Positions 29,653 to 63,039 of a stretch of DNA of 64,000 nucleotides are shown piece after piece. The stretch covers positions 121,125 to 185,124 of the forward strand of contig CAYUTO010000001.1 of assembly GCA_964447765.1 (NCBI GenBank), written 5' to 3'. Numbering within the stretch: the stretch's first letter is position 1; every line of letters starts with the position of its first letter. A model generated the notes under the pieces. It was not told the origin of the DNA, did not search any database, and worked only from the letters and a program-made list of their open reading frames with translations. Origin of the DNA: an uncultured Gammaproteobacteria bacterium. GTDB lineage: Bacteria; Patescibacteriota; Patescibacteriia; Magasanikbacterales; UBA922. The position numbers and the translations under genes were made by a program.

Positions 29653-29705
29653 ACTACATGTGTTTATCTAACAAGATATTCTTGGGATAAAAAATTTGAA
29701 TTTAA

Positions 29706-30296
29706 CTATAGATATTTTTGTAATTCTACTACAAGTTTTTCCCACTTTCTAAAGTATTCCTCGAGAGTCATTTCTTTTATACCATGCATTTGGTAAAGAA
29801 CATTAGTATCATCTTGATTACTATCAACATGAAATGTGTCAGGTTTTTCAATTCCTCCCAATTCAATATAGGTAAATTGTTTCTTTTCATCTACCTTTTC
29901 AGCTACTCTTTCACCAGCTCGAGGACAAAGATCATCTAAAATAAGTCTTATCTGTTTTGGTAAAAAAATATCAGAGCGTGTGTTAATATGATTGAAAAGC
30001 CCCCAGACACTTTGATCAAAAATGACTTTCTCATGTCTAATCATTGACAACTGTTCTGTATAAAAGTTTTCTCTATTTGCTATTATGTCGTTAATGTAAA
30101 TTTGATGCCATGATTTGCCTTTAGAATGAATTAAAAATCTTATTGTTTGAGTATATTTAAGTAAATCCTTTGCAAAGTTATACCTTTCTTTTCCACGTGT
30201 TTCTTTTTTCCATGAAAACAAAGCAAATCCAGCAATGATAACCATTACAAGTTGAAGTACTATATCAGTTATTTTTAAAATAATATCAGTTTCCAT
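29706..30296 (-). CDS. Small N-terminally membrane-anchored protein; putative partner of the PHP-ABC ATPase
   Basis: Directly downstream of 30378..33167 on the same strand. N-terminal TM helix. Confidence 0.4.
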   Translation of the reverse strand: METDIILKITDIVLQLVMVIIAGFALFSWKKETRGKERYNFAKDLLKYTQTIRFLIHSKGKSWHQIYINDIIANRENFYTEQLSMIRHEKVIFDQSVWGLFNHINTRSDIFLPKQIRLILDDLCPRAGERVAEKVDEKKQFTYIELGGIEKPDTFHVDSNQDDTNVLYQMHGIKEMTLEEYFRKWEKLVVELQKYL

Positions 30297-30377
30297 TGTA
30301 TATTTAGTGAAAAATATATTTATTTGAGCGGATTTACTCGGGCGACTGGGAGACGTTAGAGCTCATTTTATCAAAAA

Positions 30378-33167: not shown

Positions 33168-33176
33168 AGTATTCTA

Positions 33177-34667: not shown

Positions 34668-36979
34668 ACAATAATCAAACTTTGCCAGCCTTTCATTGCG
34701 TTTGTATAAGAGTATTCTTTGTTTGAGTTAATCTTCCAGCCATTTTCATCTTTGACGACAATTCCACCTACAAAGCCCTTCTTATTCTTTAGCCATTCTT
34801 GTAATGCTTCGGCTTTGTATTTTGTGTCATTTGATTCTGCTGTAAAACCAGCTTTGGTATCAACGATCCAAATCTTGTTTTTGGTTTTGATTATCCAGTC
34901 GGGATAAAATAGTTTTTCTTTGTTCTCATCAGGATTGTAGTATGAGATAGAAAAAAATTCACTACCAGAATCTCCATTTTTATACCACCACTCAATAGCA
35001 TTTTCTTTTTCTTCTAAAAATTTGATAAATCCTTTTTCATTATCGACAACTTCTTTGGAAATATAAAATGGTTCCAAAGCGGATTTCTTTACTTTCATCT
35101 CTTCGTAGTTATCTGTAAAGAAGAGAGACGCTCTAGGCACTTCAATAATTTCCGTTCTTTTTGAGCGAACGGATTTTTTGTTTACCTCTTGATCACGAAT
35201 AGGACGATATGAGAATAGTGCTTCGCCGATGATTGGTCTCAAAACACCACTTTCTCTCAACAGATCATTGAGAATAACTTTGTATGCGTGAGTTCGGTCG
35301 TCCCCAAGTATTGGAAGAAGCCACACATTAAGAGCTGTTTTGAGTTTTCCCCATGAACGTTCAGGGGCAAACTTTTTATCTTCATCTGTTTGTTTACTGA
35401 CAATGTTAAAACAAACCAAATTATAGAGTCTTTCAATATCATGTTGAGACATGTCTTGATCGTGACTATCACCCTCGGCGAGCAATTCTTTGGTAAAATT
35501 GTCATAATCATCAATCTCCACACCAACGATAATGCCGTTTGTCACTTGAGGTTTTAGTTCAAGACCTTTTGCGGACAGTTTCTTTTTTGCTTCGCTATCA
35601 TTATCTTTTAAAGAGAATGTCTTGTTTGCTATCTTTTTGAAAGTGGTTTGAAATGAATCACCAAGGTCATTATAGTCTGTACGGCTCATGAAGATGGATT
35701 CAATCTGAATTGGTTCAATACCTTCTTTGCGATAACTACCGTAAATAGCTGGTTTATTTTCTGATTTGTTCTTATCGTATTCACTAATAACCTCGTTTCT
35801 TTTGTAGTTTGTATAGAGATACCCAAGATTCAATTCAGGCTTACCGAAATGAGTGCCGTGAGGCATACGAAGAATACGACCAACCGTTTGAATAGCAAAG
35901 GTAGGATTCTTAATTTCACGGAACATCACAAGCACGCCTGCACGTGGACAATCCCACCCAGTAGCAACAGCTTGCTTGAACAAAAGAAATGAGATAGATG
36001 AATTATTTCTTTCTACATCTTCGAGGTTAATTTTATCTTCCGAAAGCCAAACGGCAATATCATTTTCTGAAACACCTTTTTTCTTGAGATAGTTTATGAC
36101 AATTTCTTGTTTGTTGATATTACTCGTTTCACTCGTTGCCTTGTCATCATTGGGGAGCTGTATCAACACAAGAGGATTTATCTCAATACCAAGTGCCTGA
36201 TAGTATGAGAGTAGTTCTTTTCTTTTTTGATAGGCAAGTTCAAGAAGAATTTCATCTTGATCCATTCCTTTGAATTGCTTTTGATTCAAGTCTTCTTCTG
36301 TTTGAAATATAATTTTTTCTTTAATCAAACCTTCTTTGACCACATCTTCACGTCTGACACGAACAAAACCAGCTATTTTATCTTCGAGATCACTTACCGT
36401 AGGCTCAAATTTAGGAGTAGCAGACGCACGGATAATTATCTTTGGCTTGATAAGACCATCAATAAGTTCTAGGGCTTTTTCCGTATCAGCACCGAGGTGT
36501 TCTTCGTCGATAATAACAACAATTTTTCTATTTTCTTCATGAGTCGATTCTATCATCCCATCAAAAGAAATATCCTGTTCGTTGTCTTTACGAATTTTGA
36601 GCACTTCTTTTGATTGTCCTTTGAGTTTTTCCCAGTTTATAAAAAACACGCTATTACGAGTCATGATTTTACGATTCAAATCATTGATATCCAAAAGCTC
36701 TAACTCCGAAGCACCCCCGTAGTATTGAAAGAGTTTGTTTTTACTTTGTTCAACAAGAGTGGGACCTTTTGACATCCATAAAAAAGCCACATCATTACCT
36801 ATAAAACGAGGGTCGGCAATAATATCTCGCAAAAATTGAGCAAGCATGACAGTTTTCCCTGATCCTGTCGGAGATTTGAATACTAAAGGAAGTTGATTAT
36901 TAGATGATTTCCAAAGGTCAAGAAATTGATCCTTTAGTTTTGCAATAGCAATTTCTTGAAAAGGTTTTAGTGGAAACAT
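34664..36979 (-). CDS. Type III restriction enzyme Res subunit (SF2 helicase plus nuclease)
   Basis: Walker A SPTGSGKT, DEEH box, helicase motif VI QTVGRILR. Translationally coupled to mod. Confidence 0.7.
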   Translation of the reverse strand: MFPLKPFQEIAIAKLKDQFLDLWKSSNNQLPLVFKSPTGSGKTVMLAQFLRDIIADPRFIGNDVAFLWMSKGPTLVEQSKNKLFQYYGGASELELLDINDLNRKIMTRNSVFFINWEKLKGQSKEVLKIRKDNEQDISFDGMIESTHEENRKIVVIIDEEHLGADTEKALELIDGLIKPKIIIRASATPKFEPTVSDLEDKIAGFVRVRREDVVKEGLIKEKIIFQTEEDLNQKQFKGMDQDEILLELAYQKRKELLSYYQALGIEINPLVLIQLPNDDKATSETSNINKQEIVINYLKKKGVSENDIAVWLSEDKINLEDVERNNSSISFLLFKQAVATGWDCPRAGVLVMFREIKNPTFAIQTVGRILRMPHGTHFGKPELNLGYLYTNYKRNEVISEYDKNKSENKPAIYGSYRKEGIEPIQIESIFMSRTDYNDLGDSFQTTFKKIANKTFSLKDNDSEAKKKLSAKGLELKPQVTNGIIVGVEIDDYDNFTKELLAEGDSHDQDMSQHDIERLYNLVCFNIVSKQTDEDKKFAPERSWGKLKTALNVWLLPILGDDRTHAYKVILNDLLRESGVLRPIIGEALFSYRPIRDQEVNKKSVRSKRTEIIEVPRASLFFTDNYEEMKVKKSALEPFYISKEVVDNEKGFIKFLEEKENAIEWWYKNGDSGSEFFSISYYNPDENKEKLFYPDWIIKTKNKIWIVDTKAGFTAESNDTKYKAEALQEWLKNKKGFVGGIVVKDENGWKINSNKEYSYTNAMKGWQSLIIV

Positions 36980-36981
36980 AA

Positions 36982-38736
36982 TTATAGACGGTTAATCTCT
37001 TTGTATACCTCAAGAATTGGTTCAGGGATATCTTCGACACGGACATTTGCTGAACTATATTCACTCTTATATTCATTTTTACCCCAGCTAAAAATATAGA
37101 GCACTGCTGGTTGTTTTTTCTTTTCTAACTTTTCTACCAAATCGTGCAATTTCTCTTTGTCTTCTTTAAAGTAGATAGCTGTGGATTTGCCGTGTCCTTC
37201 AAATATCTGCCACCACTCATTTTTTTCTGTCTCATTGAGAGTATTTTCACGTAGACCAATCATTTCTCCTGCTTGATATGTGAGTTTTACCTTTGCTTGG
37301 TCGGGGGTGTGATGAAGTTTTTCAATATCGACAAGATCAGTTTTGTAGTAACGAAGATTACCTCCGAGACCTTCTACTTTTTCTCCTTTTTTACTCTTAT
37401 ATCCTTTGATAACTTTGTTTAATCTGGTAAATGTTATATTTTCGCAAATACCGTTCTCATTATTGGTACAAAGAATAAAGTTACGATTACCGCCATCTAA
37501 ACTATTAAGCTCAAGGACAGAGTGTCCAGTTGTGCCTGATCCAGCAAAAAAATCTAATACCAATATATTTTTATCTTTGTTAGTTATATTCAACAAATGA
37601 CTAACAAGCTCTTTAGGTTTAGAAAAAGAAAAGTCTATGTCCATCTGTATTAAAACTTTTGAACCTAAGGAATTTGGTAAATCAATAAAAGTAAGAGGTT
37701 TGAGTCCTTTTTCTTGTCTTTCGTGAAGATAAATTTTTGTATATACATTCCACTTTGATTGCTTGCCGTTCTCGTCAATAAGCGGTGATGTTTTACTTTG
37801 TATAAAAACAACACGATCATCTTTTAGATTTCTCTCAAAGGTAGATGGAATCCATCTAAACATTTTATCTTTTTCAGGGGTAGTGACTTTTGATCCATCA
37901 GGGCATTCTATAAAATACCTCTGATTTGGTCGGGGATCTAGACTCGGCATGTACAATGAAACGATATTATATTTACCTCTTTTATCTTCGTATTTAAATA
38001 ACTTGAGATAACCATCATCAGTTTGTGCAGCCGCGTCATTAAACTCTCCTAGCTCATCAATATCCTTGGCATAACAAAGAATATAATCTGTCGACGGTGA
38101 AAAATATTTTCCTTTATTACTCGTCTCTTTTGACTTACGAACAATGTTTGCTAAAAAATTTTTTTCACCAAAAACACCATCACATAACAACTTAAGTTGA
38201 GCCATTTCATCATCACCGATACTGACAAAAAATACACCGCTCTTTTTAAGTAAATCTCTAGAAAGAAGCAGTCTTTTTTCAATAAAAGAAGTCCACTTGC
38301 TATGTCGAAAGGCATCATCCTTGTCCACGAATTTATCATTATAAGAAAAATCATTATTACCTGTATTATATGGAGGGTCGATATAGATAACATCAATTTT
38401 CCCTTTATGGGTATAATTCAAAACAGATAAAGCATGATAGTTATCTCCTTCGATCAAAATATTTTCCGTCTTTGTTTCATCAGTAATAACAACAGGTTCT
38501 ACTCCTTTCTGTTTTTCTTTTAAACGTAAAATAGGAACATTGCGTTTACAATCTTCCACAATTTGCTCTGGCTTCTCTTCCCAAACCAAACCATATTTTT
38601 TTTGCTTTTTTATTTTCCTCAATTCCTTTTCAAGATCTTCTATTTTTTTAGAAAGTATTTTTTCATTTGAATTCATAGCAAACTCCTTAATCCATATAAA
38701 ATATGATTGATTCCATTTTATACTTTTTTCAAGCAT
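36982..38736 (-). CDS. Type III R-M DNA adenine methyltransferase Mod
   Basis: DPPY motif IV in VIYIDPPYNTGNDF. AdoMet motif FFAGSGTTGHSV. Confidence 0.75.
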   Translation of the reverse strand: MLEKSIKWNQSYFIWIKEFAMNSNEKILSKKIEDLEKELRKIKKQKKYGLVWEEKPEQIVEDCKRNVPILRLKEKQKGVEPVVITDETKTENILIEGDNYHALSVLNYTHKGKIDVIYIDPPYNTGNNDFSYNDKFVDKDDAFRHSKWTSFIEKRLLLSRDLLKKSGVFFVSIGDDEMAQLKLLCDGVFGEKNFLANIVRKSKETSNKGKYFSPSTDYILCYAKDIDELGEFNDAAAQTDDGYLKLFKYEDKRGKYNIVSLYMPSLDPRPNQRYFIECPDGSKVTTPEKDKMFRWIPSTFERNLKDDRVVFIQSKTSPLIDENGKQSKWNVYTKIYLHERQEKGLKPLTFIDLPNSLGSKVLIQMDIDFSFSKPKELVSHLLNITNKDKNILVLDFFAGSGTTGHSVLELNSLDGGNRNFILCTNNENGICENITFTRLNKVIKGYKSKKGEKVEGLGGNLRYYKTDLVDIEKLHHTPDQAKVKLTYQAGEMIGLRENTLNETEKNEWWQIFEGHGKSTAIYFKEDKEKLHDLVEKLEKKKQPAVLYIFSWGKNEYKSEYSSANVRVEDIPEPILEVYKEINRL

Positions 38737-38793
38737 TTGTCCACACTTTCAGATATTTGTTCTTCGGGTTAAGTTCGGGTATACTGATCATAT

Positions 38794-39393
38794 ATGAACA
38801 GATTGACCAAACGACAAAAGGAAATATTCGACTACATCTGCACATATCTTGAAGAAAACGAGGTTTCCCCCTCGTTAGAGGAAATAAAAGAGAAGTTCGG
38901 TCTTTCCGCCCTCTCTACCGTTCATGAGCATATTACCGAGCTCGTAGACAAAGGGTATTTGCGCCGAGATGAGCGAAAAGAACGAGGGCTGTACTTGCCA
39001 GCAAAACGCCAGCAGTACATAGAAGTACCTCTCCTTGGGACGATTGCTTGCGGTGAACCACTGGAAGCAATTGAAACCCCCGATGAATTTATCAGAGTAG
39101 TCCGAGAAGAACCCTTGCGAGGCACGATATATGCCCTCAAAGCAAAGGGTGATTCAATGATACAAGAAGGTATTTTTGACGGTGATTTTATTATCGTCAA
39201 AAAGCAACAAACAGCAGAAAATGGCGATACCGTTGTCGCAATCATAGACGATAACGAGGCGACGCTTAAAAAATACTATCAAGAAAAGGATAGGATTCGA
39301 TTACAGCCAGCAAATCCGACGTTTAGCCCAACGTATAGACAAGAGGTAGAAATTCGAGGCGTTGTGGTGAAGATTATTCGGAATTTAAAATAA
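38794..39393 (+). CDS. lexA: LexA-like repressor (wHTH plus S24 peptidase)
   Basis: N-terminal LexA DNA-binding domain. A CG at the expected AG cleavage position. Ser/Lys dyad GDSM ... IIVKK. Confidence 0.7.
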   Translation: MNRLTKRQKEIFDYICTYLEENEVSPSLEEIKEKFGLSALSTVHEHITELVDKGYLRRDERKERGLYLPAKRQQYIEVPLLGTIACGEPLEAIETPDEFIRVVREEPLRGTIYALKAKGDSMIQEGIFDGDFIIVKKQQTAENGDTVVAIIDDNEATLKKYYQEKDRIRLQPANPTFSPTYRQEVEIRGVVVKIIRNLK

Positions 39394-40257: not shown

Positions 40258-40430
40258 TTCCGCAAAATTCTATACAAAACAGCTCTCAACCGAGGGCTTT
40301 TTTGTTATTCCCGTAAATCTTCTCCAAAACTTTTGGGAACAGTGAAATTCTATTATGCCTACATCGCAAAAACAAAGGTCGATTGCGAACACATGTAACT
40401 CATATTTTATGAAAGAAACAATACAAGTCT

Positions 40431-40694
40431 ATGTTCAAATTAACAGGAGTTCTCAAAAAAGAAGAAGTTCGGGAGTTCACACGCAAGGACGGGAGTCAGG
40501 GACAAAGCCGAACACTCTTCATCGAACCAGAAGGAAGCGTGTACCCAGTAAAAGTAAATGTGTCCGACATGGATCTCAAAGTCGGCAAACAGGGAGAAAA
40601 AGTAACAGTCGACGTGGCAATATTTCCGTACTTTATCGAGGGCGGTAAACGCAAACGAGCGTTCACGGATTACTACATCCCTAACAAGAAATAA
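40431..40694 (+). CDS. Filamentous-phage ssDNA-binding protein (g5p-like), putative
   Basis: 87 aa, beta-rich and basic. Sits directly upstream of the small hydrophobic and coat genes, as in the inovirus order gV-gVII-gIX-gVIII. Confidence 0.45.
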   Translation: MFKLTGVLKKEEVREFTRKDGSQGQSRTLFIEPEGSVYPVKVNVSDMDLKVGKQGEKVTVDVAIFPYFIEGGKRKRAFTDYYIPNKK

Positions 40695-40696
40695 GT

Positions 40697-40849
40697 ATGG
40701 ATTTCTTTACCGTAACAACCACCACCATGAGCTTGACCGACGGCGCATTGGATCTGATTAACTTTTTCAGCCAACTCTTTACCGTGTCGTTCGCGCTGGT
40801 ATTTGGTCTGCTTGCGGTGATCATCCTTTTACTCATCTTTAAAACATAG
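40697..40849 (+). CDS. Small hydrophobic protein (inovirus minor coat g7p/g9p-like), putative
   Basis: 50 aa with one TM helix. The ATG immediately follows the g5p-like stop. Confidence 0.35.
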   Translation: MDFFTVTTTTMSLTDGALDLINFFSQLFTVSFALVFGLLAVIILLLIFKT

Positions 40850-40852
40850 GCT

Positions 40853-40963
40853 ATGGCTGGTCTCATAAACAATCTATTCGAGGGATTCGGCCTAAGCCTT
40901 ATGTTTCCTCTCGTTCTATTCATAGTCGTCAGTGTCTTCTTGGCGATAACTTCGGGCAAATAG
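40853..40963 (+). CDS. Small hydrophobic protein (inovirus minor coat-like), putative
   Basis: 36 aa with a single TM helix, tightly packed with its neighbours. Confidence 0.3.
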   Translation: MAGLINNLFEGFGLSLMFPLVLFIVVSVFLAITSGK

Positions 40964-40964
40964 T

Positions 40965-41117
40965 ATGTGTTCCGCATATATCTTACTAAACAACTCGTGC
41001 TACGTAGATGATTTCCTCATGATAGGACAGGTCTACGCTAAAGCGATTGTTCTCGGTTTGGTACTTGGAACAGTGGTCGGCTTACTATTGTTATTCATAA
41101 GACACATAAAAGACTAA
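40965..41117 (+). CDS. Small hydrophobic protein, putative
   Basis: 50 aa with a TM helix. Its stop overlaps the coat gene ATG (taATG). Confidence 0.3.
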   Translation: MCSAYILLNNSCYVDDFLMIGQVYAKAIVLGLVLGTVVGLLLLFIRHIKD

Positions 41118-41392
41118 TGGCTATGACTGAGAAAATCAAAAGCCTTGTCCTTGGTACCAAAGCAAAAGTAACCGCATTCGGGCTCGCGCTCGCTGGTGGA
41201 CTTTTGGCTGGAACAAGTGCGTTCGCTGCCGTGGACGCTGATGTCGCCTCTACGACCGCAAGTGTGGTCGACACGATGAAAGAAAATGTGGTCGGTGTAA
41301 TTACCGCCAACATCTCAAATATCGTGATTGTAGGTGTGATCATCTTCTCCATCGGCTTCGTTTGGCGCCTTGCTCGTCGGTTCATGCGATAG
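41117..41392 (+). CDS. Inovirus major coat protein (g8p-like)
   Basis: Signal peptide. Acidic/amphipathic N-terminus, a hydrophobic helix IVIVGVIIFSIGFVW, and a basic C-terminus RLARRFMR. Confidence 0.6.
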   Translation: MAMTEKIKSLVLGTKAKVTAFGLALAGGLLAGTSAFAAVDADVASTTASVVDTMKENVVGVITANISNIVIVGVIIFSIGFVWRLARRFMR

Positions 41393-41473
41393 GCTTCGGC
41401 ACTGCGGGGGCTTGCTCTCAATAAGCAAAAGCCCCCGCAACGGTGCCTCATGACATACAGATAAAATATCCAT

Positions 41474-43183
41474 ATGAATATAGCATTAACAAAACACAAA
41501 GCGACGCTCATGATTGCGATAGTGATAGGCATAGGAGTGTCGTTTTTCATTTCAGGACAAGCAAAAGCGGATAGCCCTGTGGGTGACGTCGTGGAGTTTT
41601 CACCGTCCTCAAATTGGTATACCTGGTTTATTCGTACCAGCAATGAAACAGGACATGGACAATCATTCATCACACAAGCCGACACCGAAGCAATCAGCAC
41701 CGTTGCATTCAAACTTTGCCGTCTCGGTACGATTACCAAACCAAAAACATTAACACTTTGTTCGTCCGCAACAAATGGCTGGTACGGCGGATGTGCAAGC
41801 CCACTTGCAACAAAACAATTCACCGCCGACGAGCTTAATGAAATGATTAACTACGACGCAAGTTGCAATTCAAATGCGGAGGGTGGAGCAAACGACGGAA
41901 CATATTATCACTGGTCATATTTTACCTTTGATGAGCCCGTCACGGTAAGTGGAAACACCTCGTACTTTGTACTTCTAAACAGTGCCTCAAGTGCAGACAA
42001 TGAATCGGGTTCACTGCTTCGTACCATGTACAACAATGAAAACTATCTTGGTACCAGTGAGAACTACCCGAACGGACAAGAGTATTACTATAAAGGAGCG
42101 ACACGCTATACCTACGGTGCATCAACAGATATTTTCTTCAAAGTATTTAGTGCCGACCCGATAACTGTTCCGTTTGAAATTACACATCCCTTGCAAGATC
42201 AAGAAATTATCAATGACACATGGGTCACGGTATCAGGAACATGCCCCTACGTCGGAGAAAATAGAATCGGATTTACCGATGACTGTCTCGGGTTTGAAGA
42301 AATTGAATACACGGCGGCGTGTACCGAAGATCACACATTCTCGGCACAATTTTATCACACGAGTTTATCCGACAGAGTGATTGCGAGAGAAGTAGATAGT
42401 ATATCGGGCGATTGCGTTGATTACGATAATTTAATGGATTTCGTAACAGTCGACGGTATTGAGTTTGTCGACGGCTATCCCGAAGATTGGTATTTCAATT
42501 TCGGGATATATGACGATTATGATATTACGATTAAAAGCCCCGTGTTTGATGTCGCACTCACGCTTCCACGAGGCTCTACCTCAAAAGAATTTACATTCTC
42601 ATTCACATATCCCGAAGAAGCACTCGAAGACCTCACATTCGTGATTGCACAGTACGACCACGAGGGAAACTTGATAACGGATAATTTTCACACACGAACA
42701 CTCGAAAGCATGGCAGACACGAGCGATTATCAGGTAACGCTCTCCGCAACCACGACAGCATATCACTATGTTGTACAACTCATAGAAGACGCAACACTCA
42801 AGCGACAGTACCCATTTGGCATCTTTGTTTCCGACCTCGACTTTGTAGCAAATCCCGATGAAACAAATTATTTCTTTCCTCGCATTGTGACGGAACTACG
42901 AAAAAAGATTGTCTTCAATTACTACTTTGCGTTTCATGACGGCTTTTACAATATGTTCAACGGACAATATTCAAGCCCATCTTCAAACGCACTCGACATT
43001 ACATTCAAAAGTATGTCAGGAGACGGACAATACAATCTCGATGTAAAAGTATTTTCAGCAAGCGACCCGAGAGTAAAATCATTCACCAGTGCCATGCGTC
43101 CCTATATCGTCGCACTCCTGTGGCTATCGTTCGCCTTGTATGTGGTCTTTCGCATAACGCATCTATTTAGTGATAACGAATAG
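41474..43183 (+). CDS. Phage adsorption/minor coat protein (g3p-like), putative
   Basis: Signal peptide, large ectodomain, C-terminal TM anchor. Sits in the gIII position. Confidence 0.45.
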   Translation: MNIALTKHKATLMIAIVIGIGVSFFISGQAKADSPVGDVVEFSPSSNWYTWFIRTSNETGHGQSFITQADTEAISTVAFKLCRLGTITKPKTLTLCSSATNGWYGGCASPLATKQFTADELNEMINYDASCNSNAEGGANDGTYYHWSYFTFDEPVTVSGNTSYFVLLNSASSADNESGSLLRTMYNNENYLGTSENYPNGQEYYYKGATRYTYGASTDIFFKVFSADPITVPFEITHPLQDQEIINDTWVTVSGTCPYVGENRIGFTDDCLGFEEIEYTAACTEDHTFSAQFYHTSLSDRVIAREVDSISGDCVDYDNLMDFVTVDGIEFVDGYPEDWYFNFGIYDDYDITIKSPVFDVALTLPRGSTSKEFTFSFTYPEEALEDLTFVIAQYDHEGNLITDNFHTRTLESMADTSDYQVTLSATTTAYHYVVQLIEDATLKRQYPFGIFVSDLDFVANPDETNYFFPRIVTELRKKIVFNYYFAFHDGFYNMFNGQYSSPSSNALDITFKSMSGDGQYNLDVKVFSASDPRVKSFTSAMRPYIVALLWLSFALYVVFRITHLFSDNE

Positions 43184-43186
43184 CGT

Positions 43187-43432
43187 ATGTTTACTTTCAT
43201 TGAATCAATTCTTGTAAAAATTATCTCACTCTTACCCGACGCTGATCCGAATAATTCAGTTATTACGGCCGTCACAAACGCATTTGCCACTATGGCACCG
43301 ACATTCTCGCAAATTGACCTTGTCTTTCCGATATTCGTATTGTTCAAAGTATTACTCCTCGTGATGTTCGTGGAAATGACAATCTTCTTGTTTACGTTCA
43401 TTTTGCAGATTGCAACATTCTTTAAACCATAA
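43187..43432 (+). CDS. Small hydrophobic protein (g6p-like), putative
   Basis: 81 aa with two hydrophobic helices, between the g3p-like gene and the Zot-like gene. Confidence 0.4.
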   Translation: MFTFIESILVKIISLLPDADPNNSVITAVTNAFATMAPTFSQIDLVFPIFVLFKVLLLVMFVEMTIFLFTFILQIATFFKP

Positions 43433-43437
43433 CCTCT

Positions 43438-44154
43438 ATGATTACCATTGTCACAGGAAAACCAGGAGCCGGAAAAACACTCTTCATGACCTACAAAGCA
43501 CTTGAAATGTTTCTCAAAGGCTACGATGTGTATGCAAATTGGAAACTTGATTTCACAAGATACGTTCTCCGAAAACAGATTGATCTCAAAACCGTCGGGC
43601 GTGTCTACTTTTGGTCTGAAATACCTGAACTCTTACACATTAAAGGCGGACAGATATTTATTGACGAAGCACAAGGATACTTTGATAGCCGTGAGTGGCT
43701 CGACATGCCACCGTCGGCAAAACAAAAATTCTCCGCTCACAGACATGATGTAAAAACAGATGAAGACGGAAACATTATTCCACTCGATATTTGGGCGGGT
43801 GTGCAACACACAGGAAATATCGACAAACGTATTCGAGACTTGGGACAGCATTATTTGGAGGTACGAAATATCTTTCGTCTTGTATTCATGGCGTCATACT
43901 TCGAACTTCACGACCTCAAAGACGACATTGTAAAACGTCGAGCAGTAAAACGAACATTCTTTGTGATGAACAAAATGAAAGCAGATTGCTACAACACACA
44001 CGAAGCCGTGAACTTTATTGAGTACCCCGAGTTTCCATACCACCGAGAATATCCAAACACACTCTCAAACGACAATACAGGGCTTATTCCCGACACACCT
44101 GACACTCCACCATATTCGAAACAGCAACGCAAAAAAGGGAGTGGATCCTTTTAG
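43438..44154 (+). CDS. Zot/pI-family filamentous phage assembly ATPase
   Basis: N-terminal P-loop IVTGKPGAGKTLFMTYKA. Length and motif match the Zot N-terminal domain. Confidence 0.7.
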   Translation: MITIVTGKPGAGKTLFMTYKALEMFLKGYDVYANWKLDFTRYVLRKQIDLKTVGRVYFWSEIPELLHIKGGQIFIDEAQGYFDSREWLDMPPSAKQKFSAHRHDVKTDEDGNIIPLDIWAGVQHTGNIDKRIRDLGQHYLEVRNIFRLVFMASYFELHDLKDDIVKRRAVKRTFFVMNKMKADCYNTHEAVNFIEYPEFPYHREYPNTLSNDNTGLIPDTPDTPPYSKQQRKKGSGSF

Positions 44155-44492
44155 GAACCACTCCCGACCTGTTCTACTTGTTTGATGTAGAACAGGTGTA
44201 CCCGTTTCGGGTACTTTCGGACGGTCGTACCGTCCTTATCTTTCTTCTCAATGATAATGAAAGACTGAAGAGCTTTTTCACCCTTCTTTACTTGGTAGCC
44301 CATCTCGAGCCACCGATTATACGTCAAACAATTACTTTTTGGATCGTAATTGTTCGCGTCCTCTTCGCCGAAGCGAGCGAGAATCTGCTTGCGTACAAGG
44401 TCGGAAGTAATTTCCGAACCTTTCCATGTGGAAACGATTGCGTTTTCCATAGAAATAAAAAATACAGCCGAATTGATAACATCCGAAGACAA
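44151..44492 (-). CDS. Hypothetical protein (prophage-encoded, opposite strand)
   Basis: Clean 113-aa ORF convergent with the Zot-like gene. Confidence 0.35.
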   Translation of the reverse strand: MSSDVINSAVFFISMENAIVSTWKGSEITSDLVRKQILARFGEEDANNYDPKSNCLTYNRWLEMGYQVKKGEKALQSFIIIEKKDKDGTTVRKYPKRVHLFYIKQVEQVGSGS

Positions 44493-44635
44493 GGCTGTTT
44501 ATTGCCGTATCGGACAAGACAGAAACAAGCGTCTGATAGCTTGCTTTAGTCAAGGTGGAGACTTGTTACTACCTTTACCAAAGAAAAGCTGACGCTATAC
44601 TGCCTCGCCCTGATACGGAATATGAGCATTGATTT

Positions 44636-44721
44636 ACGGTATCCCGTACCGAATGGATACCGTCCCTCTGACAAACAATCTTTTTTTGGCGGCTGCCCGA
44701 CGACAAAAAAAGATTGTTTGT
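44636..44721 (+). promoter_or_regulatory. Hairpin cluster upstream of Rep; candidate phage origin / packaging signal
   Basis: Perfect 17-bp inverted repeat acaaacaatcttttttt / aaaaaaagattgtttgt (44671-44721) and cggtatcc/ggataccg (44638-44662), in the Rep 5' intergenic region. Confidence 0.4.
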
Positions 44722-44759
44722 GAGCGGTTTGTTGGTACGAACGAAATCGCTCTCTTAAC

Positions 44760-45569
44760 TTGATTATATCCACACATCTAACGAAAACTATGGCACATTC
44801 CTACACACTCAAAGTAGTGGTGTCGGGAAAGCAGGTTGAAGTGTACAAGTACACGAAAGAAGTTTGGCGGGATTTTGAATCAAAACCACAAAGTGACAAA
44901 CCTCACAAAGAGCCGAAGCAACTAAACATGTTTGAACAAGAAGAGTTAAGAAAAAAGAAAGTGCAGTATTCCATAAACAGAACCAAAACCGAGATACGCC
45001 GTCTCGTAAACTCGAACCCCCACCTCAACAAATTTATGACCCTGACTTTCGCCGACAACGTAACCGACCTCAAAACTGCGAACTACTTGTTCAATCAGTT
45101 TGTTAAACGTATCTCATACCGATACAAGAATTTTGAATACTTCGCTGTCCCTGAATTTCAAAAGCGTGGAGCCGTCCACTACCACGTGCTTTGTAACCTC
45201 CCATACGTTGAAATGGACGCACTTGAATACACATGGGGACATGGAATGGTAAATATCCGCAAAGTCGACGAAGTAAACAATCTCGGGGCGTATATGAGCA
45301 AGTACCTCGGCAAAGAATTATTCTCTGGTCGTATGTTTGGTAAGAAAAAATTCTTTCGCTCACAAACACTCAAGGAACCTGTTGAACTTATCTCATGGTG
45401 GGCGATGAAATTTATTGATAAGTTTCTTTCGCTTCTCAAGCCCGTGTTTGAAAAGAAGTTTGAAAGTGAATATATCGGCGAGGTGGAATACACGGCGTAT
45501 ACGCTTGATCGTATTGTATTCAAGGACGGCATACTCAATCCTGCCGTGTTAATGGGAACAGTATGGTAA
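44760..45569 (+). CDS. HUH rolling-circle replication initiator (Rep)
   Basis: Motif 2 HUH in AVHYHVLCN. Motif 3 with two Tyr, GAYMSKYLGKE. Confidence 0.65.
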   Translation: MIISTHLTKTMAHSYTLKVVVSGKQVEVYKYTKEVWRDFESKPQSDKPHKEPKQLNMFEQEELRKKKVQYSINRTKTEIRRLVNSNPHLNKFMTLTFADNVTDLKTANYLFNQFVKRISYRYKNFEYFAVPEFQKRGAVHYHVLCNLPYVEMDALEYTWGHGMVNIRKVDEVNNLGAYMSKYLGKELFSGRMFGKKKFFRSQTLKEPVELISWWAMKFIDKFLSLLKPVFEKKFESEYIGEVEYTAYTLDRIVFKDGILNPAVLMGTVW

Positions 45570-45727
45570 GCGAAGCACGTATAAAAGAGCTACAACTTAT
45601 CATAAAGGAAGAATACGGCGAGGATATAAGCTACGAAGAAACAAGCATTTTAGCGAATATACTTGTTCGATATTTTAGCAATCTTGAGAAGGCATATTTA
45701 TCTTGCAAAAAGAAAGAAATGTGGTAA
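45563..45727 (+). CDS. Small protein, paralog of 45871..46059
   Basis: 54 aa. Shares an EEYGE...S.EE pattern with the next small ORF. Confidence 0.3.
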   Translation: MVSEARIKELQLIIKEEYGEDISYEETSILANILVRYFSNLEKAYLSCKKKEMW

Positions 45728-45870
45728 AATATCCGTGCTACCCAATATACATTTTAGACAAAAGCTTTTTATATTTGTCCCCAGTAAGGGGCGGTTCTTG
45801 CCGATAAATATAGGCTTTTGTCTTGTTTATTGGGTAGCCAAGACCGTCCCTTTTTGTTTACAAAAAATAT

Positions 45871-46059
45871 ATGCAATTTACAAAAGAACAAGTTGAATCA
45901 TTCAAGGCATTATATAAAAAAGAATTTGGCGAGGAATTAACAGATGAGCAAGCTCAAATAGAGGCTAGTGATTTAATAGACATGCTCAAAGTCGTGTGTA
46001 AACCCGCAAAACGATCCATCTATGAAAAATTCGCAGCAGAAAAAAGAGCACTTAAATAG
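45871..46059 (+). CDS. Small protein, paralog of 45563..45727
   Basis: 62 aa with a KEFGEELTDEQAQIEASDLIDML segment. Overlaps the recombinase start. Confidence 0.35.
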   Translation: MQFTKEQVESFKALYKKEFGEELTDEQAQIEASDLIDMLKVVCKPAKRSIYEKFAAEKRALK

Positions 46060-47662
46060 TGGTACCAGACAATCTATTATTTTTTGTCGTGTATCCAGTA
46101 AAGAACAAGAAGAAACTGGATACTCTTTGCCTGCTCAAGAAAAATATTTGAAAGATTATTGTGGCAGAAATTCAATTCGCATTGAAAAAATATTCAAGAT
46201 ATCCGAAAGTGCGAGTGGCGAAAAGCAACGAAGTAAGTTTGCTGAAATGATGGGATTTGTCGAAAAGCAAGATATTAAGATTATTGTATGTGAAAAAGCC
46301 GACCGTCTCACGAGAAACTTCAAAGACATGGTAGCGATAGATCAATGGCTTGAGCATGATGAAAAACGAGAAGTCCATTTGGTAAAGGATAGTCTTATTA
46401 TGCACCGTGGATCAAAATCCCAAGAAAAACTTAATTGGGGTATTCGTATTTTGTTTGCAAAAAACTATATCGACAATTTAAGCGAGGAAGTAAAGAAAGG
46501 TCAGAAAGCAAAAGTTGAAGAAGGGTGGTTGCCAGTACGCCCACCACTAGGATATGCCACGATTGGCGAAAAGGGACACAAAACGCACGTTATCGATACC
46601 ACAGAGGCTCCACATATCAAAAAGATGTTTGAACTGTATTCTACGGGCAATTACTCGCTCAAAAAACTATCTGATGATTTGTACAATAATGGCTTTCGTT
46701 CGAAAAGCGGGAAAAAGGTCGGTAAAAGCACACTGCACCGACTTTTGGGCGATCCATTCTATTATGGACGCTTCCGCTGGAAAGGTAAGGAATATGCTGG
46801 CAAGCACGAGCCTATCATCACGAAAGACGTATATAACAAAGTACAGGATATTATGGTACGACCAATAAAGTCTCCAAGATACAGAAAACATTTACCTCTA
46901 TTTAAAGGTAAAATAAAATGTGGCGAGTGTGGTGGCACAATTACATGGGAACAGCAAAAAGGCTCATGGTATGGACATTGCAACAAGTACAAGCCTTGTT
47001 CACAAAAGAAATACATAAAACAAGAAGACGTAGAGGAAATGCTTGTACCCCTTATTATTAAAATTTCACCCAAGACCGAGCGTGTATTGGATTGGCTGGC
47101 AGATTCGCTCAAAGATACGCATGAGGATCAAAAAGAATACTCCGAAACAAAAAATACAGACCTAAATATCGAACTTGAAAAAATAAACAAACGGCTAAGC
47201 ACAATCTATGATGATAAGGTGGACGGCGTAATTTCCATTGATTTTTACAATCAGAAATTTGAAGAATACGTAGAAAAGAAAGAAAAAATACTTGAACAAA
47301 TAAATAAGCTCGAAGACAGTACAAATGACTTTTACAAGAAAGCTGTCGCAATCCACGAACTTGCATATCGAGCACGCCATCTACTTTTAAGCCCAAATAC
47401 ACAGGTAGAAGTAAAGCGAGATATATTAAGTGATATTTTTTCGAACTTTGAACTAAAAGACGGTAAGATAAGCGAAAAATATACTCCTGAATTTGAATTT
47501 TTGGAAAAATGGATGCCGAAGCTCAATGAAACTTTCGAACTGCAAGAAAATGGCTCAACAAAAGAAAAAACAGGCTCTTGCGAACCTGCTCGTTCTGTAT
47601 TGCTCGGGGACAGGGATTCGAACCCCGATAAAAGGCTTCAAAGGCCTCTGTCCTACCATTAG
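46022..47662 (+). CDS. Large serine recombinase (phage integrase type)
   Basis: Resolvase catalytic domain IIFCRVSSKEQ (Ser nucleophile). Recombinase domain, zinc-ribbon CGECGG...C, C-terminal coiled coil. The 3' end reads into tRNA-Gln. Confidence 0.75.
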   Translation: MKNSQQKKEHLNSGTRQSIIFCRVSSKEQEETGYSLPAQEKYLKDYCGRNSIRIEKIFKISESASGEKQRSKFAEMMGFVEKQDIKIIVCEKADRLTRNFKDMVAIDQWLEHDEKREVHLVKDSLIMHRGSKSQEKLNWGIRILFAKNYIDNLSEEVKKGQKAKVEEGWLPVRPPLGYATIGEKGHKTHVIDTTEAPHIKKMFELYSTGNYSLKKLSDDLYNNGFRSKSGKKVGKSTLHRLLGDPFYYGRFRWKGKEYAGKHEPIITKDVYNKVQDIMVRPIKSPRYRKHLPLFKGKIKCGECGGTITWEQQKGSWYGHCNKYKPCSQKKYIKQEDVEEMLVPLIIKISPKTERVLDWLADSLKDTHEDQKEYSETKNTDLNIELEKINKRLSTIYDDKVDGVISIDFYNQKFEEYVEKKEKILEQINKLEDSTNDFYKKAVAIHELAYRARHLLLSPNTQVEVKRDILSDIFSNFELKDGKISEKYTPEFEFLEKWMPKLNETFELQENGSTKEKTGSCEPARSVLLGDRDSNPDKRLQRPLSYH

Positions 47663-47673
47663 ACGATCCCCGA
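47603..47673 (-). tRNA. tRNA-Gln (anticodon UUG)
   Basis: Manual fold: acceptor TCGGGGA/TCCCCGA, anticodon stem-loop GAGGC-CTTTGAA-GCCTT, T-arm CGGGG-TTCGAAT-CCCTG, discriminator G. CCA is not encoded. Confidence 0.8.
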
Positions 47674-47761
47674 ATAAATTAAGTCGAAAGTGTAAAGTCT
47701 AAAAGTCTGTAAAGTCACATACAAAATACGTTATGACTTTATAGACTTTGAGGACGTTCGA

Positions 47762-58958: not shown

Positions 58959-58988
58959 AAAAAATCTCCTGCCGAAGCAAGAGATTTT
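58959..58988 (-). terminator. Rho-independent terminator after rpsI
   Basis: atctcctgccgaagcaagagat hairpin with a T-run on the minus strand. Confidence 0.45.
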
Positions 58989-58998
58989 GAGTGAGATG

Positions 58999-59415
58999 TT
59001 AACGTTTTCTCCATTGATGTCCACGACGAGCTTTGGTCAAACCCGGCTTCTTTCGTTCTTTTGAACGTGAATCACGAGTGAGGTATCCTTCTGCTTTGAG
59101 CACTGGTCGAAGTTCTGGATCCAATTTAATCAGCGCTCGAGCAATACCGTGTCGTACTGCATGAGCCTGACCGGTAACTCCGCCTCCGACTACACGTACA
59201 CTTACATCAAGTTTTGCCTCTCTCTGAACTGCCACCAAAGAAGCCAACACTACCTGCTGAAGAATTTTGGTAGGAAAATATTCTCTAAATTCACGACCAT
59301 TCACGGTGATAGCACCTTTTCCTGGCATGATTCGTACGCGCGCAGCAGCTTCCTTGCGTCTTCCCAAGGCTTTTGTCATGCTATCGTCCGTATTTGTAGC
59401 TCTTTTTGCTGTCAT
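58999..59415 (-). CDS. rpsI: 30S ribosomal protein S9
   Basis: C-terminal RKKPGLTKARRGHQWRKR signature. Confidence 0.9.
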   Translation of the reverse strand: MTAKRATNTDDSMTKALGRRKEAAARVRIMPGKGAITVNGREFREYFPTKILQQVVLASLVAVQREAKLDVSVRVVGGGVTGQAHAVRHGIARALIKLDPELRPVLKAEGYLTRDSRSKERKKPGLTKARRGHQWRKR

Positions 59416-59790: not shown

Positions 59791-60141
59791 TTATACAAAT
59801 TCGATTTTCGCAGTTTCCGCGCTATCATTCTCGCGATATCCTAATTTTGTAATTCGGGTATATCCACCTTTTCTTTCAGCATATCGTGGAGCGATATCTT
59901 TGAAGAGCTTACTTACCGCTCTGCCGGTGAAGAGTACTCCCATCGCCATATCACGATCGAGCTGAGTGTTTCCCTTTGCTCGAGTGATCAAGGGTTCTAC
60001 TACAGTTCGAAGAGCTTTTGCTTTTGCAAGAGTAGTTGTTACTGCACCATGCAATACCAAACTTTCCGCCAAACTGCGCAATAGCGCTTTGCGTTGTCCT
60101 CGTTCACGTCCTAGCTTTACGCCTTTTTTCTTATGTCTCAT
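59791..60141 (-). CDS. rplQ: 50S ribosomal protein L17
   Basis: MRHKKKGVKLGRERGQRKAL N-terminus typical of L17. Confidence 0.9.
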   Translation of the reverse strand: MRHKKKGVKLGRERGQRKALLRSLAESLVLHGAVTTTLAKAKALRTVVEPLITRAKGNTQLDRDMAMGVLFTGRAVSKLFKDIAPRYAERKGGYTRITKLGYRENDSAETAKIEFV

Positions 60142-60161
60142 ACAATTATCAATAACAAATA

Positions 60162-60887
60162 TTATTCTTGTCCAGTAGAACCTGTACCCACTGCGGTACC
60201 GGCCGCATCAAGTACAAGGCTATAGTGGTCCATAAGAATCTTGGTTGCTCGCTCTACTGCAATACGAGGAGAGATCGTTCCATTGGTTTCAATTCTGATC
60301 GTCAACTTTTCGTAATCAGTTACATCTCCTACACGAGTGTTTTCAACTGAGTAACCAACATCCTTGATTGGTGAATAGAATGAATCCATTACAATCGTGC
60401 CCAAATCAAGATGCTTACTCTCTTTTTCTGCAGCAGGGATATATCCCAATCCTTTGCCAATAATCACTTCAAGTGTAAGCTCTTTCTTGTCAGAGGTAAT
60501 GGTTGCAATTTTTAATTCAGGATTTACAATTTCGATATCAGCATTTTTTTCAAAGTCAGCCGCAGTCACATCGCCGATGCCTTTTTTCTTTAAAGTCAAA
60601 ACAACAGGTGTATCGCTGTGAGAAATTACTGCAAGCTGTTTCAAATTGAGGGTAACTTCAATCACATCTTCCTGCACTCCTTCGATTGCAGCAAATTCGT
60701 GTTGAACTCCATCAATTTTCACTGCTTCTACAGAAGAACCTTCAATTGAAGAAAGAAGTACTCGTCTCAAAGAATTACCAAGAGTGGTACCATATCCCTG
60801 ATGACAAGGAGTAACTACGAGCTCACCAATGTTTTTATCACCGGTTTCTCGGAATTCGATTGTCGAAGGTAGTAAAATATAATCCAT
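60162..60887 (-). CDS. rpoA: DNA-directed RNA polymerase alpha subunit, N-terminal domain only (241 aa)
   Basis: Clear alpha-NTD sequence. Stops 20 nt before rplQ, so there is no room for an alpha-CTD. Confidence 0.85.
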   Translation of the reverse strand: MDYILLPSTIEFRETGDKNIGELVVTPCHQGYGTTLGNSLRRVLLSSIEGSSVEAVKIDGVQHEFAAIEGVQEDVIEVTLNLKQLAVISHSDTPVVLTLKKKGIGDVTAADFEKNADIEIVNPELKIATITSDKKELTLEVIIGKGLGYIPAAEKESKHLDLGTIVMDSFYSPIKDVGYSVENTRVGDVTDYEKLTIRIETNGTISPRIAVERATKILMDHYSLVLDAAGTAVGTGSTGQE

Positions 60888-60934: not shown

Positions 60935-61558
60935 TTAACGAGTTGAGTAATACTCAACAATAAGTTTAACGTCAAATACACGTTCAAAATCAGTTTCGAC
61001 TGGCTTTCCAATCACGGTACCGCCTTTTGCAGCAGTAGCAACGGTCAACCATGAAGGAAGCGTGTGCTTACTTAATTTTTCGTCAATTCCTTCAAAAATC
61101 TTTTTGTTTGCTTTATTTGGTTTGAGGGCAAGTACATCACCTACACTTACAATGTGTGAAGGGATGTTCATCTTTTTACCATTCAAGGTAAACATACTGT
61201 GACTTACCAATTGACGAGCCTGTGCACGAGTGGTTGCAAAACCAAGGCGATAAACCACATTGTCCATACGCATTTCAAGAATCTGATTGAGGTTCACTCC
61301 TGAATCCCCTTTCATACCACTTGCAACTTCCACATAGCGTCGGAATTGGCGTTCACGAAGTCCGTATACAAATTTTGCTTTCTGTTTTTCATCAAGCTGA
61401 CGACCATATGAAGACGCATTACTTCTGCGCTTGGTTGGTCCATGCTGTCCTGGAGATTGCATCAATCGGCGAGCCACTTTGGCCGCATTTGTCTTCAATC
61501 CCAAGTTTACATGAAATCGGCGTGCTATTTTATTTTTTGGTCCAATATTTCTACCCAT
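60935..61558 (-). CDS. rpsD: 30S ribosomal protein S4
   Basis: S4 N-terminal motif and S4 RNA-binding domain. Confidence 0.9.
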   Translation of the reverse strand: MGRNIGPKNKIARRFHVNLGLKTNAAKVARRLMQSPGQHGPTKRRSNASSYGRQLDEKQKAKFVYGLRERQFRRYVEVASGMKGDSGVNLNQILEMRMDNVVYRLGFATTRAQARQLVSHSMFTLNGKKMNIPSHIVSVGDVLALKPNKANKKIFEGIDEKLSKHTLPSWLTVATAAKGGTVIGKPVETDFERVFDVKLIVEYYSTR

Positions 61559-61584: not shown

Positions 61585-61983
61585 TTATACGCGGCGACGC
61601 TTTGGTGGGCGGCAACCGTTATGTGCGATTGGAGTGATATCTTTTACTCCGAGCACGTTGACTCCGTTGGTATTAAATGCTCGAATTGCAGCTTCACGTC
61701 CACCTCCCACACCTTTGACAAATACGGTTACTTCTTTTACACCATACGCCTTGATTGCTTCAAGCACGTTTTTTACAACCATACCTGCAGCATAAGGGGT
61801 CGCTTTCTTTGGACCTTTGAATCCAGCACCACCCGCTGATCCCCAGCCGAGTACGTCTCCATTCTGGTCAGCCACCGTAACAATCGTATTGTTAAAAGAA
61901 GCCTGAACATACGCTCTGCCGTGAGAAACCGAACGAATCGCTTTTTTCTTTTTAGTAACTTTTTTAGTAGTTGCTTGTGCCAT
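61585..61983 (-). CDS. rpsK: 30S ribosomal protein S11
   Basis: S11 signature; C-terminal PPKRRRV. Confidence 0.9.
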   Translation of the reverse strand: MAQATTKKVTKKKKAIRSVSHGRAYVQASFNNTIVTVADQNGDVLGWGSAGGAGFKGPKKATPYAAGMVVKNVLEAIKAYGVKEVTVFVKGVGGGREAAIRAFNTNGVNVLGVKDITPIAHNGCRPPKRRRV

Positions 61984-62020
61984 ACGGTAATTTAGGAAAA
62001 TAAAGGATACACCCTAGCTA

Positions 62021-62422
62021 TTAGGTCTTCTGTGCAGATGGTTTCTTGCCACTTGGTGCAACATTTCGTTTGTTGCCTCGGGTTGTTCTACTATTGGTTT
62101 TTGTTCGCTGTCCTCGAAGCGGCAATCGTTTTGTATGTCTCGTACCACGATAGGATTTAATATCCTTCAAACGTTTGATATTTGAAGAAATTTCACGTCT
62201 CAAGTTTCCTTCAGTCGTTTCTTGTTTTTCAATAATATTGCGGATTACGTCTTCTTGCTCCTGGGTCAACGCTTTAACACGAGTGGTTTCAGGTACTTTT
62301 GCAGAAGCCAAAATTTTCTTTGCTTTAGTACTTCCAATACCGTAAATATACGTAAGCGCAATTACGATTCTTTTTTCGCGAGGAATAGTTACGCCGGATA
62401 CTCTCATAGATGAATGATTCAA
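62021..62422 (-). CDS. rpsM: 30S ribosomal protein S13
   Basis: S13 sequence; C-terminal RTKTNSRTTRG. Confidence 0.9.
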   Translation of the reverse strand: MNHSSMRVSGVTIPREKRIVIALTYIYGIGSTKAKKILASAKVPETTRVKALTQEQEDVIRNIIEKQETTEGNLRREISSNIKRLKDIKSYRGTRHTKRLPLRGQRTKTNSRTTRGNKRNVAPSGKKPSAQKT

Positions 62423-62448
62423 GATTATTCTAAAAAATTTAACTACCT

Positions 62449-62589
62449 GCTTTGGTTCTCTGCTTTCGTCCCTGTCGTTGTTTGTGGCGAGGGTTTTTGC
62501 AGATTACAAACCGTACTCCTCGTCTGATGACGATTTTACAGTCTTTGCAGCGTACTTTCACTGATGGGTGTACTTTCATATTCTGTGCT
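62449..62589 (-). CDS. rpmJ: 50S ribosomal protein L36 (with 9-aa C-terminal extension)
   Basis: Hand-translated: [37 protein letters not shown] plus RKQRTKAGS. Below the 60-aa track cutoff. Confidence 0.75.
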
Positions 62590-62677
62590 TTTTAAACAAA
62601 AATCATCAACTACTAAGCGATATCGACGTCAGCCTGTGGCCGACTACACCGCACTAGTTGAGACTTCCTATATTAAT

Positions 62678-62896
62678 TTAGAACCGGTAGGTAATACGCC
62701 CCTTTGAGAGGTCATACGGTGTCATTTCGACTTTTACTTCATCACCGACATTGAGTCGGATATTGAACATCCGCATTTTCCCTGAAAGATGAGCAATTAC
62801 TTCGTGTTCGTTTTCAAGTATCACTCGAAATTTAGCGCCGGGCAACAGTTCATCAACCGTACCTCGGACTTCTAAAAAATCATTTTGCTTTCCCAT
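62678..62896 (-). CDS. infA: Translation initiation factor IF-1
   Basis: 72-aa S1-like OB fold with the typical IF-1 sequence. Confidence 0.9.
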
Positions 62897-63039
62897 GTAA
62901 ATATGTTTAACGCCAGTATTGTAGCGTAAATGAATAACATTGTCAAGGTTTTTTAGTATGCCTCAGAAAATCTATATTTAGGCTTATTTTAGCACAGTAT
63001 TCCATGATTGACAAACTATGCACAATTTACTAATCTTTC

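Follow-up and report, generated by a model that had tools for sequence, protein, structure and literature searches.

The rpoA gene of the window encodes a complete N-terminal domain (NTD) of the RNA polymerase alpha subunit and no C-terminal domain (alpha-CTD). The window is the whole stretch of DNA analyzed (64 kb of contig CAYUTO010000001.1), and rpoA occupies positions 60162–60887 on its minus strand. We consider it very probable (roughly 85%) that this gene reflects an inherited loss of the alpha-CTD in a large block of CPR/Patescibacteria, comprising Magasanikbacteria-like organisms, Uhrbacteria, Veblenbacteria, and relatives, and that the window protein is a complete NTD. The functional consequences and the absence of an alpha-CTD from the rest of the genome are the parts of this reading that we infer.

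Domain content, reading frame, and operon of rpoA

The open reading frame starts with ATG, ends with TAA (60162–60164), and specifies 241 aa. Both domains of the NTD were detected using Pfam, namely the dimerization domain (PF01193, residues 27–221, E = 3e-22) and the Rpb3/RpoA insert domain (PF01000, residues 56–172, E = 7e-30); no match to PF03118 (RNA_pol_A_CTD) was found in the protein even at E ≤ 1. The NCBIfam rpoA models have 298–344 positions, and the match stopped at about model position 232. The score against TIGR02027 was 247.0 bits, above the curated equivalog cut-off of 227.8 bits, and none of the PRK05182 sub-models reached its cut-off, since the match did not extend past position ~232. 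Full-length alpha subunits in the PDB (305–368 aa) were aligned with the protein only over their first ~250 residues (best E = 4e-61).

The window protein shares with E. coli RpoA (329 aa) the NTD sequence (182 bits against the E. coli NTD), the fold, and the operon position, with ~41% identity and a TM score of about 0.85 over the structural alignment. It differs from canonical RpoA in having neither the flexible linker nor the ~80-aa helix-hairpin-helix CTD (PF03118), the binding domain for UP elements and class I activators, and it ends 8 residues past the last NTD helix. Archaeal RpoD and eukaryotic Rpb3-type subunits have the same dimerization fold and likewise no CTD, and membership in this group was considered and rejected. 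The match to the archaeal RpoD model NF001988 reached 23 bits against a cut-off of 153 and covered a single stretch of 36 residues (189–224), whereas the protein is clearly bacterial.

The AlphaFold2 model, built from a 70-sequence alignment, had a mean pLDDT of 89.1 and a pTM of 0.78. The NTD proper corresponds to residues 1–233 (60189–60887, minus strand) and includes the dimerization and insert domains; order extended through a long C-terminal helix (residues 207–233), and disorder was confined to residues 235–241 (pLDDT < 50). In Foldseek, the model matched alpha NTDs in solved RNA polymerases of Clostridium thermocellum, E. coli, S. aureus, M. tuberculosis, and T. thermophilus (among them the alpha chains of 8i23, 8i24, 4jk1, and 8x6f), with TM scores of 0.85–0.92, rmsd of 1.5–2.1 Å, and E of about 3e-28. 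The protein carries the RR pair of the LGNSLRR motif, which is invariant in the 70-sequence alignment and which we take to be R44/R45 of E. coli. Mutagenesis of E. coli alpha has shown that R45 is needed for binding the beta subunit. Given the confident NTD fold and the RR pair, the protein can be described as a complete assembly domain followed by a tail of about 8–15 residues. Because the NTD is conserved and the RR motif is invariant, the protein would be expected to assemble as alpha2 with beta and beta' into an active core enzyme.

The tail is 15 aa long (DAAGTAVGTGSTGQE), is disordered, and contains no basic residues. Its last part, residues 234–241 (the VGTGSTGQE region; 60165–60188, minus strand), appears from the comparison with homologue tails to be a remnant of the interdomain linker.

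The stop codon of rpoA is separated from the ATG of rplQ at 60141 by exactly 20 nt (60142–60161, minus strand; coding strand 5'-TATTTGTTATTGATAATTGT-3'). A continuation by frameshifting or read-through was considered and rejected, as the three frames downstream of the TAA contained stop codons or rplQ itself and nothing else. Since the stop codon is TAA, an explanation by UGA recoding does not arise. These results agree with the sequence-only reading of this DNA, which had described an NTD-only rpoA of 241 aa ending 20 nt before rplQ, with no downstream or frameshifted continuation and no alpha-CTD in the operon; the last of these statements can now be extended to the whole 64-kb window, as described below.

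The gene order infA-rpmJ-rpsM-rpsK-rpsD-rpoA-rplQ-rplM-rpsI is canonical, and all these genes are on the minus strand. Upstream of rpoA are rpsD (S4; 60935–61558; PF00163 and PF01479) and a block (61585–62896) consisting of rpsK (61585–61983), rpsM (62021–62422), rpmJ (62439–62579), and infA (62678–62896). Pfam identified rpmJ and infA; rpsK and rpsM were named by sequence and position, with S11 and S13 Pfam matches at the same places in relatives (L085). Downstream are rplQ (ribosomal protein L17, 116 aa; 59791–60141; PF01196, E = 1e-31), rplM (59427 to about 59780, or to 59828 with a longer start), and rpsI (58999–59415), the last two being identified by L13 and S9 Pfam matches on the identical contig L089. 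By consensus match, a putative sigma-70-type promoter (TTGACA-17-TACAAT; 62918–62946, minus strand) was located upstream of infA, and an intrinsic-terminator-like hairpin with a T-run (58961–58988, minus strand) was located 3' of rpsI, where it likely ends the transcription unit.

An A6 tract (ctaaaaaacc; 62947–62955, minus strand) directly precedes the -35 hexamer (TTGACA) in the promoter of this operon. In E. coli, such a tract would resemble a proximal UP subsite. A-tracts are thus not obviously gone despite the missing alpha-CTD, but this statement concerns a single case, which may mean nothing and was given no weight.

The alpha-CTD was searched for with a profile HMM that was iterated from the E. 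coli CTD over fetched homologues (83 sequences in the final alignment; the E. coli sequence was checked against the PDB). As a control, six-frame translations of 80 loci from the genome collection were searched, and the CTD was detected in each of the 67 CTD-bearing rpoA loci (E ≤ 1.6e-16), as was an additional stand-alone copy at one of them (L078, described below). In the six frames of the 64-kb window, no alpha-CTD was detected with this HMM (best E = 1.2), and the E. coli CTD alone gave no match in the window when used as a probe. The window contains a single rpoA-like gene.

Conservation of the truncated gene in relatives

An identical 241-aa protein was found in an independent assembly (run SRR12712864; contig L089), where the 20-nt spacer and the neighboring genes are also the same. 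When RpoA sequences were clustered at 90% identity and ranked by closeness to the window protein, none of the best 120 clusters carried PF03118 according to precomputed Pfam annotation and the CTD HMM. These proteins were 230–302 aa long and 66–98% identical to the window protein; several were encoded on contigs of 170–873 kb, and the named members belonged to Candidatus Magasanikbacteria, Parcubacteria, and Patescibacteria. A second, more distant profile of CTD-less RpoA gave a similar picture, with PF03118 absent from 119 of its best 120 clusters and a CTD present in one; the named members of this group include Uhrbacteria, and its contigs reach 403 kb.

The same architecture was observed in at least 13 GTDB species-representative genomes, assigned to Magasanikbacteria, three Uhrbacteria, Veblenbacteria, and several "Patescibacteria" or mislabeled MAGs, in which rpoA encodes 232–273 aa without a CTD. 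Of 13 related loci, 12 are on contigs that reach rplQ, which starts 3–30 nt after rpoA; these 12 and L089 have rpoA in the conserved rpsM-rpsK-rpsD-rpoA-rplQ slot. Searches reaching up to 10 kb to either side of rpoA detected no alpha-CTD in any of the 13 genomes. The scan of the genome collection with a 7-sequence alignment yielded about 16 CPR-like loci among the matches listed, which is a sample and not a census. Four of the CTD-less loci (L002, L003, L010, and L026) are titled "uncultured Gammaproteobacteria bacterium"; their RpoA is of CPR type and 48–72% identical to the window protein, and these labels are almost certainly wrong.

The sequence-only reading had named an assembly error as a possible cause of the truncation and comparison with related RpoA as a check. 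Artefactual truncations by frameshift, premature stop, or chimeric join do exist. On a non-CPR metagenome contig (L085, 6362–7490), rpoA is split into an ORF of 266 aa for the NTD and an overlapping ORF of 113 aa for the CTD; the split results from a frameshift, which may be real or due to a sequencing error, and exemplifies an artefactual "CTD-less" rpoA. Furthermore, about 28 singleton representative RpoAs without a CTD had strange C-termini, either Arg/Pro-rich as in out-of-frame translation or unrelated-looking as in chimeric joins. Most of them were placed among CTD-bearing sequences in the neighbor-joining (NJ) tree, and we read them as real artefacts. For the window gene, however, the 20 nt between the TAA and rplQ leave no room for about 80 missing codons, the independent assembly has the identical gene, and the architecture is shared by 239 of 240 neighboring clusters as well as by 13 distinct genomes that stem from different studies. 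An artefact is effectively refuted by these three lines of evidence, and we give it practically no weight. As the trait is found in the independent assembly, the clusters, and the genomes, the truncation is conserved and is not an error.

An alpha-CTD might still be encoded elsewhere in the genome, as a separate gene or fused to another protein, and act in trans. Stand-alone CTD-like ORFs occur in nature. In Clostridia bacterium MGBC000103 (L078, 10973–11281), a 102-aa stand-alone paralogue of the alpha-CTD lies between a full-length rpoA and rplQ, where the CTD-coding part of the gene has apparently been duplicated in tandem. An RNA_pol_A_CTD domain is also present in a 119-aa protein (L082, 4653–5012; also L083 and L084; three samples), which is encoded on contigs with many small unannotated phage-like ORFs and may be a phage-encoded mimic of the alpha-CTD. 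In addition, the view of the source genome spans 64 kb, so that a CTD acting in trans could lie outside it. Against this, there is no CTD in the window or near rpoA in the 13 related genomes, and a detached CTD would have no tether to the polymerase. A search with a profile of CPR CTDs returned 20 short PF03118 proteins, and the seven contexts inspected were four fragments of ordinary rpoA genes at contig ends, an rpoA split by a frameshift, and a single phage-like ORF present on three contigs; no stand-alone CTD gene of CPR was found in these seven contexts, which is weak negative evidence. We consider a CTD provided in trans improbable.

It is also conceivable that a second, full-length rpoA exists elsewhere and that the operon copy is an additional alpha, specialized or degenerate; Francisella, for example, has two alphas. 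The 64-kb view would allow for such a gene, and CTD-bearing RpoAs of "Patescibacteria group" organisms occur at about 42–47% identity. However, the CTD-less gene holds the canonical rpsD-rpoA-rplQ slot and is highly conserved, with 45–50% identity to Firmicutes NTDs, and no CTD-bearing protein was present among the best 120 clusters. The CTD-bearing RpoAs of CPR are encoded at this very position in their respective genomes (L013 and L047) and are therefore orthologues from other lineages rather than paralogues. A second full-length rpoA is thus unlikely, and we assign this explanation a very small probability. In the window lineage, the CTD-less alpha of the operon is accordingly regarded as a stable inherited form, with a CTD in 0 and 1 of the two sets of 120 best clusters and in none of 13 genomes, the copy number of rpoA being seen within 64 kb.

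Distribution across CPR and C-terminal tails

The loss is not general among CPR. The CTD is kept in the same operon slot in Saccharibacteria (L047), Giovannonibacteria (P0158), and other members of the "Patescibacteria group" (P0135 and L013). In the NJ tree of NTDs, several clusters of CTD-less sequences were interleaved with CTD-bearing CPR sequences; a single domain of ~220 aa cannot separate one ancient loss from several. Magasanikbacteria and Uhrbacteria are in the "Parcubacteria group" in the NCBI taxonomy. In GTDB, Magasanikbacteria, Uhrbacteria, and Veblenbacteria are presumably together in class ABY1, a placement that would agree with a single loss in the ancestor of the class.

The CTD-less RpoAs end in low-complexity tails of 4–76 aa (median 25). 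Among the best 120 clusters, 86 tails contained at least 25% Asp/Glu, and 50 had four or more Lys/Arg in their last 20 residues. For 94 tails of 24–80 aa, the front was net-negative in 78 and the last 12 residues were net-positive in 62, with both features in 53. AT-hook-like tips preceded by an acidic spacer were observed at the very end of CTD-less RpoAs of several lineages, for example, KKRGRPKKTE (P0133), KRGRPKKN (P0171), KKRGRPKKESS (L007, Veblenbacteria), and KKRGRKKKE (P0074 and P0075). The interdomain linkers of CTD-bearing CPR alphas are likewise charged and variable. The simplest reading of the sequences is that the tails are decaying remnants of the linker; the recurrent layout of an acidic spacer and a basic tip leaves room for a residual role in contacting DNA.

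A bolder reading, which we consider rather doubtful, is that the alpha-CTD of these CPR was replaced by a minimal tethered DNA anchor, in which an acidic disordered spacer carries a Lys-rich and sometimes AT-hook-like tip (KRGRPKK) that would, like the CTD, contact A/T-rich upstream DNA through the minor groove. In the subclade of the window protein (P0001–P0011; at least 84% identical), the tails are of Gly/Ser/Thr/Ala type, 12–15 aa long, and have no basic tip; under this reading, the tip would since have been lost there. If this were true, the polymerase of the window organism would be a natural bacterial RNA polymerase without any alpha-mediated contact to upstream DNA, yet with several sigma factors and regulators.

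Precedents and expected consequences for transcription

Textbooks present the alpha-CTD as universal in Bacteria. A comparative study from 2025 likewise treated it as present in all Bacteria (PMC12531629). Its loss has been documented for two insect endosymbionts, Candidatus Hodgkinia and Candidatus Tremblaya, in PMC8321222, which also cites the chloroplast alpha of Euglena as a CTD-less case (Sheveleva et al. 2002). Like the window organism, these are natural cases in which a reduced genome kept the NTD and lost the CTD. One sentence of PMC8321222 adds that the loss "is also present in Parcubacteria". The source cited for it is Nelson and Stegen 2015 (PMC4508563), whose text does not contain the words "polymerase", "rpoA", or "alpha"; the preprint of PMC8321222 (bioRxiv 10.1101/2020.09.07.285775) words the point as "reported in other studies". 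A full-text literature search found no published analysis of alpha-CTD loss in CPR, and this sentence was the sole mention. We therefore rate the CTD-less alpha of CPR as a large addition to the natural losses already reported in reduced genomes, one that was hinted at but not characterized before.

The window organism differs from the insect endosymbionts in several respects. The genomes of Hodgkinia and Tremblaya are organelle-like (0.14–0.2 Mb). These endosymbionts were reported to have no transcription factors (bioRxiv 10.1101/2020.09.07.285775), whereas several sigma factors and regulators have been retained in the window organism, along with a consensus-like promoter, mobile elements, and defense islands. 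Moreover, the CTD loss described here spans a large environmental radiation.

The closest experimental counterpart is the engineered alpha(1-235) of E. coli, which has essentially the same domain content. That protein is a laboratory construct, whereas the window alpha is natural and the sole operon-encoded alpha of its lineage. According to the summary of this work in PMC8321222, a CTD-less alpha of E. coli supports core assembly and basal transcription and does not support transcription that depends on UP elements or activators. By analogy with E. coli, the alpha NTD of the window organism would dimerize, nucleate alpha2-beta-beta' assembly, and support basal sigma-directed transcription, with promoters being recognized through sigma only (-35 and -10). 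The contacts of the alpha-CTD with A/T-rich UP elements would be lost, as would recruitment by class I type activators and other factors that bind the alpha-CTD. The sequence-only reading had proposed that these functions are missing or are provided in trans, a proposal that accords with the E. coli work. Repressors and alternative (ECF) sigma factors would then carry regulation, together with proteins that contact sigma, beta, or beta'. As the basic C-terminal tips of many relatives could keep some contact with DNA, the expectation of no upstream contact may not apply to the entire clade.

The regulators identified in the window using Pfam were two ECF-type sigma factors, GreA, LexA, and an HTH-TPR protein. 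The sigma factors (Sigma70_r2 and r4_2) are encoded at 3446–4012 and 6721–7275, both on the minus strand; GreA (7647–8153) and LexA (38794–39393) are on the plus strand. An unannotated ORF, probably for a membrane-bound protein, follows each ECF sigma gene (1862–3391 and 6020–6718), and these could be anti-sigma factors. The ECF sigma factors, GreA, LexA, and the consensus-like promoter fit regulation centered on sigma factors and repressors. The sequence-only reading had called the truncation consistent with an extremely streamlined transcription apparatus; its description of an NTD-only rpoA with no continuation and no CTD in the operon stands, but the remark on streamlining does not fit a window with these regulators and a near-consensus promoter. 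That reading had also missed both the occurrence of the trait across the clade and the presence of the CTD in other CPR lineages.

Other features of the window were also noted. A region at 40300–47700 contains genes for a Zot-like ATPase (43438–44154), a Rep ORF2/G2P replication protein (44760–45569), small ORFs, and a large serine recombinase (46022–47662), and is likely an integrated inovirus-like element. At its 3' end, the recombinase gene runs into a tRNA-Gln gene (47602–47673, minus strand), with which it overlaps and which is a plausible attachment site of this element. A low-GC island at 29700–38740 (GC of 0.28–0.38 against about 0.40 elsewhere) encodes an AAA_21/OLD-like ATPase (30378–33167), a DUF2779 protein (33177–34667), a ResIII helicase (34664–36979), and an N6/N4 DNA methylase (36982–38736), and looks like a type III restriction-modification or defense island. 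A carotenoid-type cluster (16713–21674, minus strand) encodes a UbiA prenyltransferase, a polyprenyl synthetase, a squalene/phytoene synthase, a phytoene-desaturase-like amine oxidase, and a Caroten_synth protein, which is unexpected in a metabolically minimal CPR genome. Two surface proteins of ~1000 aa (10368–13253 and 21960–25016, both on the minus strand) terminate in peptidoglycan-binding PG_binding_1 domains, also contain C-type lectin, Ig-like, and GLUG modules, and are possible adhesins of an episymbiont.

The interest of the finding is limited by the precedents for domain loss in reduced genomes and by the fact that its functional consequences are those we infer. There is also a practical side: thresholds on rpoA length and profiles mis-score CTD-less proteins, and tools for annotation and completeness estimation should expect about 230–290 aa. 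The alpha-CTD underlies UP-element recognition, class I activation, and contacts with several factors, and promoter and activator models in the style of E. coli may not transfer to CPR genomes. A CTD-less radiation with multiple sigma factors, repressors, and consensus-like promoters represents a natural experiment on bacterial regulation without the alpha-CTD.
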